Of a stretch of DNA of 32,000 nucleotides, positions 4,445 to 30,932 are shown piece by piece. The notes under the pieces are model-generated. The model was not told the origin of the DNA and ran no database searches. It saw only the letters and a list, made by a program, of their open reading frames with translations. The translations under genes were made by a program, and so were the position numbers. The stretch's first letter is position 1, and each line of letters starts with the position of its first letter. The stretch is taken from positions 5,157 through 37,156 of the forward strand of contig JAUSKK010000006.1 of the NCBI GenBank assembly GCA_030649345.1, read 5' to 3'. The stretch is from Candidatus Iainarchaeum sp. Its GTDB lineage: Archaea; Iainarchaeota; Iainarchaeia; Iainarchaeales; 0-14-0-20-34-12.

Positions 4445-4842
4445 TAAAATCCCATCCCAAATATTGCGAATATTCCTAAGTTAAAGAAAATAATAGTAAG
4501 CCATCCTTGAGTTTCATTAATTATAAGTAAATTCTTTTTCAAGTTCGGAGAACTTTCAGCAACAGTTAATACTGTGAATTTTCCCATGTAAAATAAAATT
4601 AACAAATTTCCAACAAACACAATTAATCCTAGCACTCCAACAAAATCACTAATTGTCCACATGTAAATAGAAATAACAATAGTGCCGTAAATTGTATTTT
4701 TGATTTTTCCGCCTAAAAAAATATGCATAATTCCAGCATAGGCAAACAGCCAAGGCAGGTTGTTGAGCAGCAAGTAAAATAACCAACCGATGTCTAGGCC
4801 AATGAGGTGAATTAGAAATTCTACAATACCTAAATCTTGCAT
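4444..4842 (-). CDS. Multi-TM membrane protein, paralog of 3892..4260
   Basis: NNLPWLF motif, four predicted hydrophobic helices; first gene of a co-directional four-gene cluster. Confidence 0.55.
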   Translation of the reverse strand: MQDLGIVEFLIHLIGLDIGWLFYLLLNNLPWLFAYAGIMHIFLGGKIKNTIYGTIVISIYMWTISDFVGVLGLIVFVGNLLILFYMGKFTVLTVAESSPNLKKNLLIINETQGWLTIIFFNLGIFAIFGMGF

Positions 4843-4982
4843 AGATACAACCTGCTGCTCAATGAGCTTTCGCCCTTACTAGCCGAGGTTAATTACGCCC
4901 CAACTTTACTGTTTGTTATAGAATTAGTCTCTGAACCAATATATAATAGTAACTAATATAGGTGAACAAGTTAATTAGTTGG

Positions 4983-5510
4983 TTATTTGGTGAGTTTTTG
5001 ATCCATTTTTGCCAATTGTGCTGGTTTTTTCTTAATTTTTCCACCACAAAAGTCACATTCAGTTAATTTTGTATTTAAACTGAACTTTTTGCCGCAATTT
5101 ACGCATTTAGGCTCAAATTTTATGATTTCTTTGATTTCACGCATGATTACAGCTTGAAATGGAATTTTAAGTAAAGCCAGAAAGTTTTGAATACTATAAT
5201 CATCGGTTAAGACTTGGATTTTTTGTTTTTTTTCCAATAATTCTTTGGCTAAAGCTAAAACAGTTAAGTCTGGATAGCTTAGTTTTTCAAATCCATGCTC
5301 TTTGACTAATTGTTTGAGTTCTTCTAAGTGTTTCCAGTTGGCTTCTTGGATTTTCAGCAAACCTTGAGTTAATGCATTTTCAACTAAATTCCTTGCTTCA
5401 AAGCTTTTCCATTCGCTTAAAACTTCAGGCGTTGTAATATACGAATGTTTAGATTCAAACTCAAAATTGGGTTCATTCAGTAAAGCACTGGCATCTAGAA
5501 CATACAGCAT
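4983..5510 (-). CDS. nob1: Nob1-like endonuclease (PIN domain plus C-terminal zinc ribbon), 16S rRNA 3'-end maturation
   Basis: N-terminal VLDASAL PIN start, central LTDDYSIQN, C-terminal CVNCGKKF...CDFCGG zinc ribbon. Architecture and size match archaeal Nob1. Confidence 0.7.
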   Translation of the reverse strand: MLYVLDASALLNEPNFEFESKHSYITTPEVLSEWKSFEARNLVENALTQGLLKIQEANWKHLEELKQLVKEHGFEKLSYPDLTVLALAKELLEKKQKIQVLTDDYSIQNFLALLKIPFQAVIMREIKEIIKFEPKCVNCGKKFSLNTKLTECDFCGGKIKKKPAQLAKMDQKLTK

Positions 5511-16192: not shown

Positions 16193-16459
16193 TTATTTCA
16201 TGCTTGGAAATAATTCGTCTCTGGTTTCTGCAGCCATTCTGCGTTCAGCATCTTCTACTAGTCTAACCATATTTTTGAGTTCTTTGTCTTTGCTTTTCAG
16301 TCTCTGCAAAGCATAAAAATAAGCATTAATAATGGAGTCAAAATCTAGTTTTCGTTTCAATCCCATGCGAGCTACTTCTTCAAAATAAACTTTAACTAAT
16401 TTTAAAGCCAAAGCTTCGTCTGCAATGCAGCCGCATTTTTTTCCTTCATCTTCACCCAT
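16193..16459 (-). CDS. Hypothetical 88-aa protein
   Basis: Strong SD (AAGGTGATC) 5 nt upstream of the ATG; helical, charged sequence; no recognisable family. Confidence 0.5.
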   Translation of the reverse strand: MGEDEGKKCGCIADEALALKLVKVYFEEVARMGLKRKLDFDSIINAYFYALQRLKSKDKELKNMVRLVEDAERRMAAETRDELFPSMK

Positions 16460-17443: not shown

Positions 17444-18019
17444 TTATTCAAAGTCTACTGCTGGAGCATTTTCTGCTCCTTCGGTTATGGCTTCAAAGAA
17501 TTCTTTTTCTTTTAAACCCATAAACCCTGCAATCAAAGAACCTGGAATTTGTTTAATGGCAGTATTGTACGATTTAATAGTGTCATTGAATTCATTGCGT
17601 GCAAAAGCAACCCTATTTTCAGTTCCTTCCAATTGAACCAATAAATCACGGTAAGCTTGGGTTGTTTGCAAGGTTGGATAATTTTCTGCAACCAGCAACA
17701 ATTTTGAAATTGTGGATTCCAATTCATTGGCTGTTTGAACTCTTTGAGATTGTTCAGATTGAGTTTGCCATTGAGTTCTTAACTCACTTAATTTGGTTAA
17801 AGTTTCTTGTTCAAAATTTCCAGAACCTTGAATAGTGCTAACTAAATTTGGAATTAAATCAACTCTTCTCTGGTATTGAGTTTCCACTTTAGCCCAAGAA
17901 TTGTTAACTCCTTGATCTAAAGAAACAAACGAGTTATAGGTTCCGAAAAACCATAAAACCAGCAAAACCACTAAAACAGCTATTCCTGCTAAAATCAATT
18001 GTCCTTTACTTAAAGCCAT
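17444..18019 (-). CDS. lemA: LemA family protein
   Basis: N-terminal TM, then YNSFVSLDQGVNNSWAKVETQYQRRVDLIPNLV, a typical LemA signature. GGAGG SD upstream. Adjacent to the TPM gene, as is commonly seen. Confidence 0.85.
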   Translation of the reverse strand: MALSKGQLILAGIAVLVVLLVLWFFGTYNSFVSLDQGVNNSWAKVETQYQRRVDLIPNLVSTIQGSGNFEQETLTKLSELRTQWQTQSEQSQRVQTANELESTISKLLLVAENYPTLQTTQAYRDLLVQLEGTENRVAFARNEFNDTIKSYNTAIKQIPGSLIAGFMGLKEKEFFEAITEGAENAPAVDFE

Positions 18020-18157: not shown

Positions 18158-19273
18158 TTAAAGCAAAAGAGTTAATTGCTCGATAGGAATGGCTAATTTA
18201 ACTTCCCGCGTTTTTCCTCGTTTTTCTAATTTTTTTTCTTCCAAAGAAATTAAATGCATTCCAGCCAGTCTGTTTAATCTGCTTCGAAATTGCCGTTCAG
18301 TCAAAGGTTTTTTGACCAACAGACAATATTGTTCAAACAAAATTCCAGAATGACAAGGCTGAAGTTTGGATAATAGTTCAAGAACTTGTTTATCAATGGG
18401 GTCCAAACTTTTTTCAGCCCTGGCAATTTGCCGTGCGCTAATATCCGGCAAAATTTTTTGCAAATGAGTCAACAAAACTTTTTCTGAATTTTCTCGTTCA
18501 GCTTGTCTTCCAGCTTTCAAGATAGCTTCAATAGCAATACGGGCATCTCCATTATTTTTAGCAGCAAATCCTGCAGCCACATTAATGACTTCAGCATCAA
18601 CTGAGTTTTCCCGAAAAGCAAACTGAACACGTTCTTTTAGAATTGTTTTCAATTGAATGGGGGTATATGATTTGAATTCAATACTGGAATTAAAAAAAGA
18701 ACTGCGAACACGATCATCCAATTGAGATAAAAGCAATGGATTGTTTGAAATCAAAATAATAACTGGAGCATGTGCTACCGGCAAGCGCAATAATTCATAC
18801 AATAAAGTAGAGGCGTTTCCAGTATGCATTAATTGATCGGCTTCATCTAAAACAAGTATTGGATAAAAATCTGATTTTCGTAAAGATTCTTGCACGGACT
18901 CAAAAATTTCTTCACTGGACATTCCTCGCTTGGGCACAGCACACTTCATAAACGAAGCCAAGGCAGCTAAAACAAGATGCCGTGAATTGTATTCAAAGCA
19001 GTTCAAGTACAATGATTTTGCACGAGAAGAAAATTCCTGCAGTTCTTTTAATACAAATTTTGAAATTGCGGTTTTTCCTGTGCCTGGCAAACCAAATAAA
19101 AAAAAATTTTCTGCTTTACGCGCTTTAATCAAAGGTCTTAAACCTAAAGCCAAAGTTTGAATTTCATTTTCTCGGCACGGCAAACGGTCAGGTAAAAAAT
19201 CGGCATACAAACTGGCCTCATTTTTGAATACACTTAAAGAGTCAGGAAATGAAGAGAAAACATTGGAAGGCAT
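18158..19273 (-). CDS. cdc6: Orc1/Cdc6 replication initiator
   Basis: Walker A GLPGTGKTA, Walker B LVLDEADQL, sensor regions, C-terminal winged helix. ATG at 19273 preferred over the GTG at 19333. Confidence 0.85.
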   Translation of the reverse strand: MPSNVFSSFPDSLSVFKNEASLYADFLPDRLPCRENEIQTLALGLRPLIKARKAENFFLFGLPGTGKTAISKFVLKELQEFSSRAKSLYLNCFEYNSRHLVLAALASFMKCAVPKRGMSSEEIFESVQESLRKSDFYPILVLDEADQLMHTGNASTLLYELLRLPVAHAPVIILISNNPLLLSQLDDRVRSSFFNSSIEFKSYTPIQLKTILKERVQFAFRENSVDAEVINVAAGFAAKNNGDARIAIEAILKAGRQAERENSEKVLLTHLQKILPDISARQIARAEKSLDPIDKQVLELLSKLQPCHSGILFEQYCLLVKKPLTERQFRSRLNRLAGMHLISLEEKKLEKRGKTREVKLAIPIEQLTLLL

Positions 19274-19516
19274 ACTTGAAGAAAGATCAAAGAATTTAAA
19301 AAATGCGTACAGAAGACTTCCGGTTTCAAACACAACGAAATGGCTAAAAAAGAATGATAAAAGGCATATTAAAGTTAAAGGAAATAGCTGGGGTTTCCGT
19401 TGATTTAAATACTCGCAAATTATTAGGAACTACAATGCGTTGAATGAATAAAAAGCATGTTTGATTTCAGTTTGCTGAATTAAACAGTATTCAACACATT
19501 GTACGAGGTGGAATAA

Positions 19517-19711
19517 ATGAAAACAATCCGAAATTTAAAAAACCTATATTTGGCTGAATTAGAGGATAAAAAAAACCAATTACTGGAAAGGCTCAGTTTA
19601 GGAAAATCCAATAAAAGAGACAGAAATGCATTATACGAAGTCTTAGGAGTAATGGACTATAAAGCAAGAATTAGCCAAGAAAGAATTCTGCCAATCTCTG
19701 AATGCTTTTAA
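19517..19711 (+). CDS. Hypothetical 64-aa protein
   Basis: GAGGTG SD 6 nt upstream of the ATG. The stop overlaps the left arm of the hairpin element at 19710. Confidence 0.4.
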   Translation: MKTIRNLKNLYLAELEDKKNQLLERLSLGKSNKRDRNALYEVLGVMDYKARISQERILPISECF

Positions 19712-19772
19712 ATGAGTGATGCAAATATTTAGCAAAATAATATACTTGCTTTATACACCGCATCACTCATTT
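19710..19772 (+). repeat. Conserved-core hairpin element, copy A (core 19719-19763; 13-bp outer stem; followed by T5)
   Basis: aaatgagtgATGC...GCATcactcattt. The core is 39/45 identical to 30812-30856, while the flanking stem sequence is unrelated between copies. Confidence 0.7.
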
Positions 19773-19811
19773 TTAAACTAAGCTCTTCAATCTCTCAACA
19801 AGTAGCTCAAA

Positions 19812-19859
19812 AGAGTGTTTGGTAATTCCCGATTACCAGCACTCTGCCCTGGCAAGGGC
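19812..19859 (+). other. GC-rich double hairpin in the leader of the pilin-like locus (candidate cis-regulatory leader or small RNA)
   Basis: Hairpin 1: 19812-19817/19840-19845 plus 19821-19826/19832-19837. Hairpin 2: gccc(19846-49)/gggc(19856-59). A T5 run follows at 19872-19876. Confidence 0.35.
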
Positions 19860-19901
19860 TTAAACCCACACTTTTTAAATAATTTGAATAAAATAATAAA
19901 T

Positions 19902-20213
19902 ATGAGTGATGCCCATTTAGACCATGGAAGTACTGGCCCAACACCAGCCAGTTCAAGTACTGGTTCTGGAATTGAAGGCTGGGTTAGTAAATTAATTACC
20001 TATGTTACTTCTCAAATTCGAACCTTTGTGGCTTTCTTATTTTTTGTTTTCACACTAGGAGCAGTATTGGGAATTTTAATTATGTACAAAGCACCTCAAT
20101 ATGCAGGCTTGCTTGTTTTAGCTCCAGCAATCATGGGTTTGTTGGCTTATTACAATACAACTATTGCAGTTGTTTTATTTATTTTATTTGGATTAATGAT
20201 TTCCATTCTATAA
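19902..20213 (+). CDS. Small membrane protein (about 103 aa, Ser/Thr/Gly/Pro-rich N-terminus, about 3 TM)
   Basis: ATG at 19902 preferred. The track's GTG at 19815 would translate the structured GC-rich leader. Confidence 0.5.
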   Translation: MSDAHLDHGSTGPTPASSSTGSGIEGWVSKLITYVTSQIRTFVAFLFFVFTLGAVLGILIMYKAPQYAGLLVLAPAIMGLLAYYNTTIAVVLFILFGLMISIL

Positions 20214-20805: not shown

Positions 20806-21161
20806 AATCCAGTAAAGGATTTGGAGCCAGTATTGAAGTTTTCTTAGTATTCTTAGGCTTGCTGTTAATGGTTCATTTAAGTTTGAATGCATTTTCGTTC
20901 AAATCATTAAACTTAGCTGAACAAGAAAAAGAAATGCAAGAATTAAACCAAATTCAATTACTGGACTTAAATATAGATTGGACACAGATCGAAAATTCAG
21001 GATATTTAAATAAACAAAATATTGCAAAAATGAAATGGGAAAACGGAAAGAGTATTCAAGCTCAGCTTTCAATCTGTTCAAAAACAGAAAAAAGATTTGA
21101 ACGAATTGATTTTCAAAACCAGCAAAAAGTACGTATTACTTGGAGGCTTTGTTTTGAGTAA
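20802..21161 (+). CDS. Archaeal type IV pilin-like protein (class III signal peptide)
   Basis: MKSSKGFGASIEVFLVFLGLLL: basic residues, then Gly, then a hydrophobic helix with Glu. GAGG SD upstream. Confidence 0.6.
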   Translation: MKSSKGFGASIEVFLVFLGLLLMVHLSLNAFSFKSLNLAEQEKEMQELNQIQLLDLNIDWTQIENSGYLNKQNIAKMKWENGKSIQAQLSICSKTEKRFERIDFQNQQKVRITWRLCFE

Positions 21162-21516
21162 AGGGTTTGGCTGGTTATGGGAAATTTTGCTAACATTAAT
21201 CTTATTGGGATTAACCGTACAGATACTTTTACAAGATTCGCCTAAATCAAATATAACCGAATTAAAAGTATTTTATTTGCAAACCGATTTATTGAATATT
21301 TGGTTAAAAAAAGAAAACCTAAACCTAGAGGAAATGTTGGAAGATTTTGAATGGGTTTTTCCAAATGCAAATGGCTGTGTACGCATAAATCTGGAAAAAA
21401 AATGCATTGAAACAAGAATACCTAGAAAGACAAATGTACAAAGCTTGTCTGTTTGGAAATATCAAAATCAATCATTTAAAAAAATTCAAATAGACCTGTT
21501 TATTCCAGTAAATTGA
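21154..21516 (+). CDS. Archaeal type IV pilin-like protein (class III signal peptide), TTG start
   Basis: A GGAGG at 21143-21147 precedes the TTG at 21154, giving (M)SKGFGWLWEILLTLILLGL, the same SKGFG...E pattern as the preceding gene. The track's longer ORF (21097) overlaps the upstream gene. Confidence 0.5.
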   Translation: MSKGFGWLWEILLTLILLGLTVQILLQDSPKSNITELKVFYLQTDLLNIWLKKENLNLEEMLEDFEWVFPNANGCVRINLEKKCIETRIPRKTNVQSLSVWKYQNQSFKKIQIDLFIPVN

Positions 21517-27170: not shown

Positions 27171-27291
27171 TAGAAGAGGGATAGGCTTACCAAAGCATTG
27201 AAAATTAGCTCACCAAAAATAAAGAATCAAATCTGCTTCTTTATTGATTCAATGCTTTGACCAAACTTTTTCTGAAAAAAACCCTCTTCTA
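27171..27291. repeat. Three-tier nested inverted repeat
   Basis: Outer arms 27171-27180/27282-27291 (10 bp), middle 27191-27202/27248-27259 (12 bp), inner 27218-27226/27237-27245 (9 bp). All are perfect by hand pairing. The outer right arm overlaps the stop codon of the lipoprotein gene. Confidence 0.7.
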
Positions 27292-28203
27292 ATTACATTC
27301 TCTTTCCAAAGAATTCAATACATCAAAAAAGTTTTGCATTTTGGATTCTAAACCAAGTGAAATTTCTGCATTAAAATCTAAATTTAAAGTTTGCATTAAA
27401 GAAGCACGCTCTTGTTGTATTGGAATTAATTGATTTCGGATTTCGTTTAATTTTTCTTTTAAGCTTTGAAGAGTACTAATTTGGCATAAATTTTCTTGGC
27501 TGGAAAATTGTTCAAATTCTTGAAAAAATGTTTTCAGACTTCCAGCAAATACGCAGGTATTGGAAAACAATTCTTGAAATGTTTGAAAATAAAACAAAGT
27601 GTCTCCAGTTTGAGCTGTAGAAATAGCGTATTCCGGCACAGTTGTTTGCATAGATAATTGATACGCTACAGCCCAAGCAACATAATGGTCTTGAAAGGTT
27701 CTGGCTTTTTCTTCCAATACAACTAAGTTTTGTTTCAATAAATTAATTCCAGAAATATTTTCAGAATCACAAGCAGTGAATGAATTGTTTTCTAAACTAA
27801 ATCCTGAAGAAAACAAACCAGACTCCAGTTGCTGGGTTTGGGTTTGAATTTCAATCGTACGTTTTCGCAGCTCAATAATTTCCAGATTAATTGCAAGATA
27901 TTGTTCAACCAAGTCTTTTTCGGAAGTAGGAAAATAATTGCTGATTTCAGTTTTCAGTAATTCCAATTCAGTTTGAATTTGAGTTAATGTGTCGGAAGAA
28001 AAATTAACTGAATCAAACGAATACGGCAATTGTTGAAGAAATGTAGGGGAATTTTTAGAACTCCAAACAGAATCTATTTGTGCAGTTAATTCAGATACAT
28101 TCGCAAACGATTGGGTGCAGGCGCTTAAAAAAAGAAGCGTAAACACAGCAATAAAAATAATGAAATTATTTTGAAGAAACTTTTTTGACTTTTTTAGATT
28201 CAT
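27289..28203 (-). CDS. Putative lipoprotein/secreted coiled-coil protein
   Basis: Basic N-terminus, hydrophobic segment and LSAC lipobox-like motif. Gln/Glu/Leu-rich remainder. The start overlaps the topA 3' end by 38 nt. Confidence 0.5.
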   Translation of the reverse strand: MNLKKSKKFLQNNFIIFIAVFTLLFLSACTQSFANVSELTAQIDSVWSSKNSPTFLQQLPYSFDSVNFSSDTLTQIQTELELLKTEISNYFPTSEKDLVEQYLAINLEIIELRKRTIEIQTQTQQLESGLFSSGFSLENNSFTACDSENISGINLLKQNLVVLEEKARTFQDHYVAWAVAYQLSMQTTVPEYAISTAQTGDTLFYFQTFQELFSNTCVFAGSLKTFFQEFEQFSSQENLCQISTLQSLKEKLNEIRNQLIPIQQERASLMQTLNLDFNAEISLGLESKMQNFFDVLNSLERECN

Positions 28204-30307: not shown

Positions 30308-30781
30308 TTAAAATTTCTTTTGAGCTAAAGAAGAAGGCAAACTATTGGATTGTTTTAATTGACTGACAACCACTAAAGATTTCATGTCTTGGATTCCATC
30401 TACAGCAGATAAGCGCGCCAGAAAAGGTTCGACTGCACTTAAAGAAGGCAAGACTACTTTCAATAATAAATTGTATTCTCCCAAGACTTGATGAATTTCA
30501 ATAATATTTTCCAAAGTTTCCAATTTTTTAAATACATCTTTGGATTTAGATAAATCTGTACGTAGTTGAATAAACAAAGGTTTCTCAAAACCAATAGCAG
30601 AATAATTTAGATTCGCAGTAATGGAAGCAATGACTCCTTTTCGTTTCAAGGATTCCACACGTTTTTTTACAGCCACATCAGTTAAATTTGTATTTTTGGC
30701 TACAGCACTATAACTGGCTCGACCGTCATCCAATAAGGCTTTCAGAATTACAATATCAATTTTATCCAACAATACAGTCAT
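30308..30781 (-). CDS. lrp: Lrp/AsnC family transcriptional regulator
   Basis: LDKIDIVILKALLDDGRASYSAVAKNTNLTDVAVKKRVESLKRKGVI HTH plus a RAM domain; canonical size. Confidence 0.85.
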   Translation of the reverse strand: MTVLLDKIDIVILKALLDDGRASYSAVAKNTNLTDVAVKKRVESLKRKGVIASITANLNYSAIGFEKPLFIQLRTDLSKSKDVFKKLETLENIIEIHQVLGEYNLLLKVVLPSLSAVEPFLARLSAVDGIQDMKSLVVVSQLKQSNSLPSSLAQKKF

Positions 30782-30799
30782 TCAAACCAGCTCAATCTT

Positions 30800-30868
30800 T
30801 AGTAAAGAATAATGCAAATATTTAGCTGAACAAAATACTTGCTTTATACAGTGCATTATTCTTTAGTA
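30800..30868 (+). repeat. Conserved-core hairpin element, copy B (core 30812-30856; 16-bp outer stem with 1 mismatch)
   Basis: tagtaaagaataATGC...GCATtattctttagta. Lies 19-87 nt upstream of the lrp ATG (30781, minus strand). Confidence 0.7.
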
Positions 30869-30886
30869 TTCTAAACAAAAACATAT

Positions 30887-30932
30887 AAAAAGTTTGCTTG
30901 TTGAACAAACCAGTTATGTTTGCAAACTTTTT
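30887..30932. terminator. 11-bp-stem hairpin (aaaaagtttgc/gcaaacttttt) flanked by T-runs in the minus-strand sense, downstream of the 30973 gene
   Basis: Perfect inverted repeat. In the minus-strand sense it is followed by UUUUUAUAUGUUUUUG. Confidence 0.45.

Follow-up and report, generated by a model that had tools for sequence, protein, structure and literature searches.

The window analysed here is a stretch of 32 kb from a 37,156-bp contig in the metagenome-assembled genome (MAG) of a 'Candidatus Diapherotrites archaeon' (DPANN), the G+C content of which is approximately 34%. It is a housekeeping region, with the encoded proteins including the alpha and beta subunits of PheRS, an RFC-like ATPase, Orc1/Cdc6, CDC48, an NFACT-like protein, topoisomerase I, and an Lrp/AsnC regulator. 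Upstream of most genes in the window a TATA box (such as TTTTAAA, TTTAAAAA, or TTTATATT) is located 21-24 nt 5' of the ATG, implying leaderless mRNAs, and a minority of the genes (o64, 16193-16459, and 17444-18019) carry a GGTG or GGAGG Shine-Dalgarno (SD) sequence in place of the leaderless-type TATA box. Two of the intergenic spacers contain the subject of this report, a pair of hairpins designated copy A and copy B, which share a conserved core and may represent a small palindromic DNA repeat that has spread within this lineage. Copy A is located between the genes o64 and o102, and copy B is located upstream of the gene for the Lrp/AsnC regulator (Table 1).

The first-pass annotation had described the two copies as a repeated 45-nt core, and this repeat proved to be real. 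The pattern ATGCAAATATTTAGC-N8-ATACTTGCTTTATACA-N2-GCAT had exactly two matches in the window, both on the plus strand, and none in 100 dinucleotide shuffles. The two cores align without gaps and are identical at 39 of 45 positions, and the alignment of A with B scored 42.5, compared with a mean of 13.9 for shuffled sequences. Judged by this similarity, A and B are homologous copies; no convincing sequence homology between the two loci was found beyond the hairpin. The copies form direct repeats 11 kb apart, but with respect to the genes on either side they have opposite orientations. Both copies recur without any difference in an independent Logan assembly of the same sample (with B in Logan contig L001), and are thus not an artefact of a single assembler.

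In copy A, the arms AAATGAGTGATGC and GCATCACTCATTT pair perfectly over 13 bp and are separated by 37 nt. Both strands of both copies folded far better than shuffled sequences (z = -8 for A and about -4 for B). The core alone forms a weaker hairpin, in which TAT..AGC is paired with GCT..ATA around a variable apical loop. The arms had been proposed to be complementary flanks around a conserved centre, and the comparison of the two copies bears this out: of the 13 stem pairs that can be compared in a gap-free alignment of the whole units, 9 are identical, 4 have changed on both sides in a compensating manner, and none is broken. The six differences within the core are clustered in two loops, an apical one of 8 nt and an internal one of 2 nt (p~0.026), such that 6 of 10 loop bases differ as opposed to 0 of 35 interior bases outside the loops. 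An invariant interior beside diverged loops suggests functional constraint. The further claim that the flanks lack any similarity held in part. The arms do differ, but their gap-free alignment (AAtGAgTgATGC vs AAaGAaTaATGC) has 5 of 9 positions identical beyond the ATGC (hand count; p~0.1 by hand estimate). This identity falls short of significance, so that arms of common origin with compensatory changes are indistinguishable from arms without any relationship, and homology of the arms is not established.

Table 1. Coordinates of the hairpins, associated sequence features, and neighbouring genes in the 32-kb window.
Feature	Position	Strand	Description
Hairpin copy A	19710-19772	+	Arms 19710-19722 and 19760-19772, 13/13 complementary; core 19719-19763
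Hairpin copy B	30800-30868	+	Arms 30800-30816 and 30852-30868, 16/17 complementary; core 30812-30856
Insert at the copy B locus, ~76 nt	30781-30856	-	Not in L002 or L003; holds core B, the 3' arm (minus-strand orientation), and an SD-like GAGCTGG (30793-30787)
Conserved Lrp/AsnC promoter block AAGCAAACTTTTTATAT	30883-30899	-	23-26 nt before the ATG in relatives, 102 nt here
Third copy of the arm of A, ATGAGTGATGC	19902-19912	+	First 11 nt of o102 (MSDA...)
Partial inverted copy of the right half of the core, ATGGACTATAAAGCAAGAAT	19651-19671	+	Within conserved codons of o64 (GVMDYKAR); weak, p~0.09
Hairpin C	27191-27259	-	Arms 12/12 complementary, 45-nt spacer; homologous to D, as C(-) with D(+)
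Hairpin D	19431-19503	+	Arms 14/15 complementary, 43-nt spacer; spans the o64 promoter, in the spacer between the divergent genes cdc6 and o64
Orc1/Cdc6 gene	18158-19333	-	
o64 gene	19517-19711	+	Genuine conserved small protein; divergent neighbour of cdc6
o102 gene	19902-20213	+	N-terminus MSDAH ancestral
Lrp/AsnC regulator gene	30308-30781	-	

Having defined the repeat pair, we compared its two loci with those of relatives. Orthologues of the Lrp gene (protein MDO8427735.1; 57-59% identity) retain the gene order of a 248-aa gene, Lrp, and topoisomerase I, and have upstream spacers of 67-79 nt in which the TATA box is located 23-26 nt 5' of the ATG, a leaderless layout. The promoter block AAGCAAACTTTTTAT...GTTTTTGTTTAG (minus strand, about 30899-30871) is common to the window and to the relative L002. 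In a MAFFT alignment, both L002 and a second relative, L003, have a 76-column gap that begins at the ATGC of core B (30856) and extends as far as the Lrp ATG (30781). By this alignment, copy B is an insertion of ~76 nt relative to the orthologous loci, placed exactly between the conserved Lrp TATA block and the ATG. In the orthologous Lrp promoters of relatives, nothing resembling the A/B repeat was found. The closest relative of the Lrp protein (P0005, 93% identity; ENA ERZ27297570) has a spacer of 115 nt as opposed to 191 nt here, which is 76-85 nt shorter by its coordinates and fits the absence of B there.

From the ancestral start position onwards, the insert contains an uninterrupted frame of 24 codons, MHCIKQVFCSAKYLHYSLLKIELV, with a TGA stop codon that abuts the Lrp ATG. 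The SD-like GAGCTGG is located 5 nt 5' of this ATG, and o64 has the same layout (GAGGTGG, 5 nt, and ATG). As the conserved TATA box is 27 nt before the ATG of this upstream open reading frame (uORF), the Lrp transcript would be expected to start inside the 5' arm of B, in which case the outer stem would be unable to form in the Lrp mRNA. The insertion would have turned a leaderless Lrp mRNA into one beginning with the 24-codon open reading frame (ORF), the TGA of which stands directly before the ATG with the SD-like sequence ahead of it, and termination-reinitiation would then keep Lrp expressed. Conservation of a peptide encoded by the minus strand of the core was considered and rejected: the ORFs are open, but the substitutions hit codon positions 2 and 3 and alter residues. 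Farther upstream, 30887-30932 is an inverted repeat (11/11) of which one arm is the conserved Lrp promoter sequence GCAAACTTTTT, common to L002, and the second arm is a new inverted copy not present in relatives; together with T-runs it resembles a bidirectional terminator fused to a promoter.

At the locus of copy A, the distance between o64 and o102 is 190 nt, as compared with 20 nt from the stop codon of the one homologue to the ATG of the other in L033, a 48%-identical relative. Taken together, these comparisons indicate that both copies are located in lineage-specific spacer DNA that is missing from the orthologous loci of relatives. On the plus strand, copy A directly follows the o64 stop codon and is itself followed by T5; the remainder of the 190-nt spacer contains two G+C-rich hairpins (19812-19860) and the TATA box of o102 (TTTTTAAATAA, 19-22 nt before the ATG). 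The first 11 nt of o102 recur as the left arm of A, a match that was reached in only 6 of 5000 simulations (p~0.001). The right arm with 3 flanking nucleotides (19760-19775) is complementary at 15 of 16 positions to 19897-19912, which includes the o102 ATG.

Several other features of this locus were recorded. The two adjacent hairpins at 19812-19860, just 5' of the o102 TATA box, had no Rfam match and could be an unannotated small RNA; at the position matching them, the distant relative L030 has a 458-nt G+C-rich structured spacer (4643-5100). In the spacer upstream of cdc6, GGAAATAGCTGGGGTTTCC at 19378-19400 has the layout GGAAA...GGGG...TTTCC, which may be reminiscent of archaeal origin recognition boxes (ORBs). 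An origin reading of copy A itself, which is ~380 bp from cdc6, is disfavoured, as B is located 11 kb away and the copies are unlike the ORB consensus.

The window was then searched for inverted repeats with a spacer of 20-70 nt whose arms were either perfect over 12 nt or more or, with a single mismatch, 15 nt or longer. The search identified four strong repeats with long spacers (35-45 nt), namely A, B, and two further hairpins, C and D, whereas simulated sequences had a mean of 0.8 and a maximum of 3. All four are located within the 10% of the window that is intergenic. C and D, with an alignment score of 25.5 against 11.2 +/- 2.1 for shuffles, are clearly a second homologous pair by sequence; the arms of both conform to CAAWGCRTTGAA, including two compensated changes and one T.G pair. 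The first-pass annotation had suggested a weak third relative of A and B at the position of C. This is indeed a strong inverted repeat, but one with no demonstrable kinship to A/B: it reached 14.8 bits (E = 0.66) with the covariance model and Smith-Waterman p-values of 0.08-0.13, and pairs with D instead. Between the two pairs, A-D had a p-value of 0.046 and the other cross-pairs 0.08-0.26, and covariance model R2 gave B an E-value of 0.045, such that membership of A/B and C/D in one family is only suggestive.

Comparison with relatives also illuminated the origin of the arms. The TAAAAAGCAT box of D, its ATTGTAC, and the SD sequence are kept in the relative L034, from which the inverted copy is missing. 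D and the 30887-30932 hairpin each have one arm of ancestral sequence, kept in a relative, and one that arose as a new inverted copy, suggesting that this lineage repeatedly carries hairpins with one ancestral local arm. Among the side observations on this group, the 12-mer of the C/D arms occurs 47 times in the window with at most 2 mismatches, compared with 25.6 expected, and C is located 130 nt upstream of a helix-turn-helix (HTH) gene that is weakly Lrp-like and beside a lineage-specific gene. A hairpin at 21067-21111 has C/D-like arms (CAATCTGTTCAA and TTGAACGAATTG, 10/12), and its right arm is the start (TTG AAC GAA TTG) of the ORF 21097-21516, inside the overlap with the preceding ORF; this may be a coupling hairpin that sequesters the start codon.

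The reading that we favour, with a confidence somewhat below even, is that A/B is a small dispersed palindromic DNA repeat that spread by duplicative insertion and acts at the DNA level. The comparative data point to A and B as products of duplicative insertion, as distinct from an ancient conserved RNA gene or an operator with an in situ origin. Among the alternatives listed in the first-pass annotation, a mini-element that inserts fits best, since B is a ~76-nt insertion and the spacer around A measures only 20 nt in a relative. The unit would consist of a 13-16-bp stem around a 37-nt interior that is itself a weak hairpin, and would have spread within this Diapherotrites lineage. It would work as DNA, forming a hairpin in a single strand or a cruciform in an AT-rich context, and not as a transcript, a view that is based on the opposite orientation of the copies, the predicted start inside the arm of B, and the enclosure of a promoter by D. 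Recognition of the folded form by a copying or binding agent would preserve the stem together with the 35 invariant interior bases, or else the arms would be homogenised by template switching. The arms themselves were probably drawn at least in part from local sequence, because the arm of A equals the start of o102. Template switching between short inverted repeats is reported in PMC8604942 as homogenising arms and inverting spacers.

A number of observations weigh against this favoured reading. The nearest relative has a spacer of 167 nt before o102 (coordinates only), and copy A may therefore be old. Searches with Pfam, PHROGs, and NCBIfam identified no transposase, integrase, viral family, or HUH-type (Y1/RAYT-like) enzyme among the ORFs of the window, and any mobilisation would thus have to act in trans. 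There is no clear target-site duplication: TACTAAAGA (9 nt) is repeated at the flanks of B and TTTAAAA (7 nt) at the flanks of A, but the two differ in length, and each overlaps the near-palindromic end of an arm. A candidate duplication comprising ATGcACTGTAT in core B and ATGACTGTAT at the Lrp start was rejected, as an unbiased test gave it no significance. A selfish or neutral origin alone is also insufficient to account for 35 invariant interior bases beside loops in which 6 of 10 bases have changed. Finally, only two copies were found within 32 kb, and the label 'dispersed' is based on two loci 11 kb apart.

The search for additional copies was extended to several collections. The A/B covariance model, R1, matched only A and B in the window and had no match in 11 related Diapherotrites loci. 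A 20-base sub-pattern matched one sequence among 185,579 GTDB representative genomes, a chance match without a hairpin; a looser pattern had 23 matches in metagenome contigs, none with the ATGC, TATACA, GCAT, or arms; and two scans of viral contigs had 68 matches, all by chance. BLAST searches of phages and plasmids had no match. By the first-pass annotation, a lack of further copies in the genome or relatives, combined with the lack of a transcript, would speak against its proposal; as for copies in relatives, every collection scanned (GTDB, metagenome and viral contigs, and related loci) lacked them. The absence from GTDB, metagenome, and viral contigs agrees with a restriction of the repeat to this lineage.

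With respect to known systems, we would provisionally file A/B as a lineage-specific variant of the kind represented by repetitive extragenic palindromic (REP) sequences and miniature inverted-repeat transposable elements (MITEs), one in which the interior rather than the arms is conserved; this assignment has nearly, but not quite, an even chance of being right. Like REPs and REPINs, A/B is a short extragenic hairpin repeat of the sort often found just after a stop codon and recognised as folded DNA. REPs, however, are mobilised by RAYT transposases. They are 14-40 nt long, have one consensus over the whole palindrome, and occur in many copies (PMC12306157), whereas the A/B unit is 63-69 nt long with a conserved interior, variable arms, and two copies in 32 kb. 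Most REPs have a GTAG or CGTC head (PMC3733652); neither end of A/B has one, and the window encodes no Y1/RAYT-like protein. The resemblance to MITEs lies in a small non-coding insertion with inverted ends and in presence or absence at orthologous loci, as B is truly inserted relative to those of L002 and L003 and the spacer of A is 20 nt in L033. MITE families conserve their terminal inverted repeats and have target duplications of fixed length, whereas the arms of A/B differ and no consistent duplication was seen. The first-pass annotation was thus right that this is not a MITE in the classical sense, the arms not being the conserved part.

In the attC sites of integrons, too, a folded single strand defines the site, with stem pairing kept as the sequence varies and with a variable terminal loop. 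The outer R''/R' boxes of attC (RYYYAAC and GTTRRRY) are conserved, and the system needs the IntI integrase and cassette arrays. The attC boxes are not present at the feet of the A/B hairpins, no integrase is encoded in the window, and the conserved part is external in attC but internal in A/B. Putative mobile promoters, or promoter reuse, offer another likeness (PMC3575422), in that near-identical upstream sequence stands before unrelated genes of one genome; B is located in a 5' region, and a real promoter lies within D. As a promoter, however, the A/B core is of weak quality, and complementary flanking arms are foreign to that concept. Quasi-palindromes formed by template switching have arms that are homogenised and copied from neighbouring sequence, as PMC8604942 and PMC7202029 describe, but this is a mutational process and not an element family, and by itself gives no conserved interior at two distant loci. 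Copy A, located after a stop codon and followed by TTTTT on the plus strand, also resembles a hairpin and oligo-T terminator; B has no T-run, a consensus terminator scan of 19300-20000 found 0 sites, and a conserved 37-nt interior is not a terminator feature. The bulge-helix-bulge (3-nt bulges 4 bp apart) that flanks archaeal processed RNAs or introns is not present in either copy, as the outer stems are uninterrupted up to an internal loop of the directly opposed 3x4 type.

The most probable alternative to an inserted DNA repeat, although unlikely in itself, is a shared DNA regulatory module arising through promoter reuse or as an operator, with the 35 interior bases being a putative transcription-factor site. 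One example of such a factor would be the Lrp/AsnC protein, the gene of which lies 31 nt from core B; it would regulate its own gene at B and, at A, any of o102, o64, or cdc6. Relative to the conserved Lrp promoter, copy B lies at about +1 to +45, where a repressor would typically be placed, and A is located upstream of o102 and beside cdc6. Lrp-type operators are palindromes of 13-15 bp with an AT-rich centre; the interior is quasi-symmetric, with half-sites ATGC-N3/4-TATWWAGC, and GCAAATATTT(A)GC is a near-palindrome. The third occurrence of the arm of A, at the start of o102, is operator-like, the contrast of 0/35 with 6/10 differences implies constraint, hairpin D encloses a real conserved promoter, and the reuse of near-identical promoter regions before unrelated genes has been documented (PMC3575422). 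Operators, however, normally evolve in place, whereas B arrived as a 76-nt block; a sequence-specific protein would leave unexplained why the arms differ and yet remain complementary; and the orthologous Lrp promoters of relatives contain nothing similar.

The promoter component of a regulatory module was evaluated with a position weight matrix for TATA boxes built from 16 local upstream regions. Real local sites scored 5-8 bits at -24 to -32, whereas the TATA-like elements that the first-pass annotation had pointed out in the core scored only 3.7 bits on the plus strand and 1.6 bits on the minus strand. The spacing from the core box to the gene, 34 nt for B and about 145 nt for A, is atypical as well. 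The T-runs said to follow each copy dissolved on inspection, that after A being the TATA box of o102 and the hairpin with a T-run after B being the terminator of a 247-aa gene together with the conserved Lrp promoter. On these sequence criteria, the promoter-cassette idea is weak.

A structured RNA, either a small RNA with its own promoter or a cis-acting leader or 3'-untranslated element with conserved internal loops that bind protein or RNA, is distinctly unlikely. In a variant, the right arm of A could pair with the start-codon region of o102 as an attenuator-like switch, in keeping with the near-perfect complementarity of 19760-19775 to 19897-19912. Compensated stems, a variable apical loop, and conserved internal loops are a classical RNA signature, the fold is strong on both strands, and the placement of A between a stop codon and T5 is terminator-like on the plus strand. 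The orientation relative to local transcription is nevertheless opposite at the two loci, so the host mRNAs could not yield the same RNA, and the two short transcripts that had been proposed would share no sequence. No convincing plus-strand promoter was found 5' of either hairpin. The Lrp transcript would be expected to start within the 5' arm of B, and the o102 mRNA, having a leaderless-type TATA box of its own, would be without the arms of A. No family in Rfam matched at the gathering score in the whole window, and at E<=10 the regions around A, B, and 1100-1400 yielded no family, with only microRNA and small nucleolar RNA noise of 12-20 bits around A and B. The predicted fold has no bulge-helix-bulge, K-turn, or C/D-box signature. 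Compensated arms, moreover, may be obtained without selection by template switching (PMC8604942). The first-pass proposal of a structured RNA is weakened accordingly by the orientation, the predicted start, and the Rfam result.

Less probable again is a by-product of template switching, according to which the hairpins would have been built in situ by replication errors, with one segmental copying from A to B and neither function nor mobility. The identity of the arm of A with the start of o102 fits such a process, as do the resemblance of the right half of the core to an inverted piece of o64, the resemblance of its left half to codons 3-7 of o102 (ATGCccATTTAG), and the combination of one ancestral arm and one new inverted copy in both D and 30887-30932. 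The individual similarities to o64 and o102 are weak, however; 35 identical interior positions beside diverged loops and arms would be left unexplained; and a copying event to the Lrp locus 11 kb away would still be required. Very improbable are coincidental terminator hairpins, or attL and attR sites of an integrated element spanning 19.7-30.9 kb, as might be suggested by the T5 after A and the direct repetition of the copies, since the expected number of chance matches is 0, B has a T-run on neither strand, the intervening genes (CDC48, NFACT, topoisomerase I, Lrp, and others) belong to the core and keep their synteny in distant relatives, and no integrase was found in the window.

Elsewhere in the window, a 32-nt direct repeat (31/32; 1190-1221 and 1284-1315) duplicates the last codons and stop codon of a nucleoside triphosphate (NTP)-transferase gene (481-1221). 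It brackets a 62-nt G+C-rich segment (1222-1283) that is foreign to a genome with 34% G+C and for which neither a stable RNA fold nor an Rfam match was found; the exact sequence of the protein encoded by 481-1221 is missing from the gene index. A 304-aa ORF without a family match (27289-28203) is located between the topoisomerase I gene and a 179-aa HTH gene and overlaps the topoisomerase gene by 38 nt. As L003-L005 have only about 160 nt at that place, this gene is a lineage-specific insertion. A scan of the window found no transfer RNA or transfer-messenger RNA.

A/B, possibly together with C/D, might be a new archaeal hairpin module in which a protein reads the interior on extruded or single-stranded DNA and the stem serves only for pairing, the mirror image of attC or REP logic. 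We regard this as distinctly improbable. Such a module could be an element mobilised in trans that builds its arms from the target, or a cruciform-type control site near cdc6 and regulator genes. At the Lrp locus, a block of hairpin DNA has been inserted so as to separate the start codon from its conserved leaderless-type promoter. The gene apparently survived, perhaps by means of a 5'-terminal uORF with a stop codon abutting the original ATG. DPANN genomes are tiny and tightly packed, and their non-coding DNA is little known. Should only these copies exist, they would be a local curiosity; if more copies exist, the repeat would provide a tractable case of palindromic repeats arising, keeping their fold, and rewiring archaeal 5' regions.

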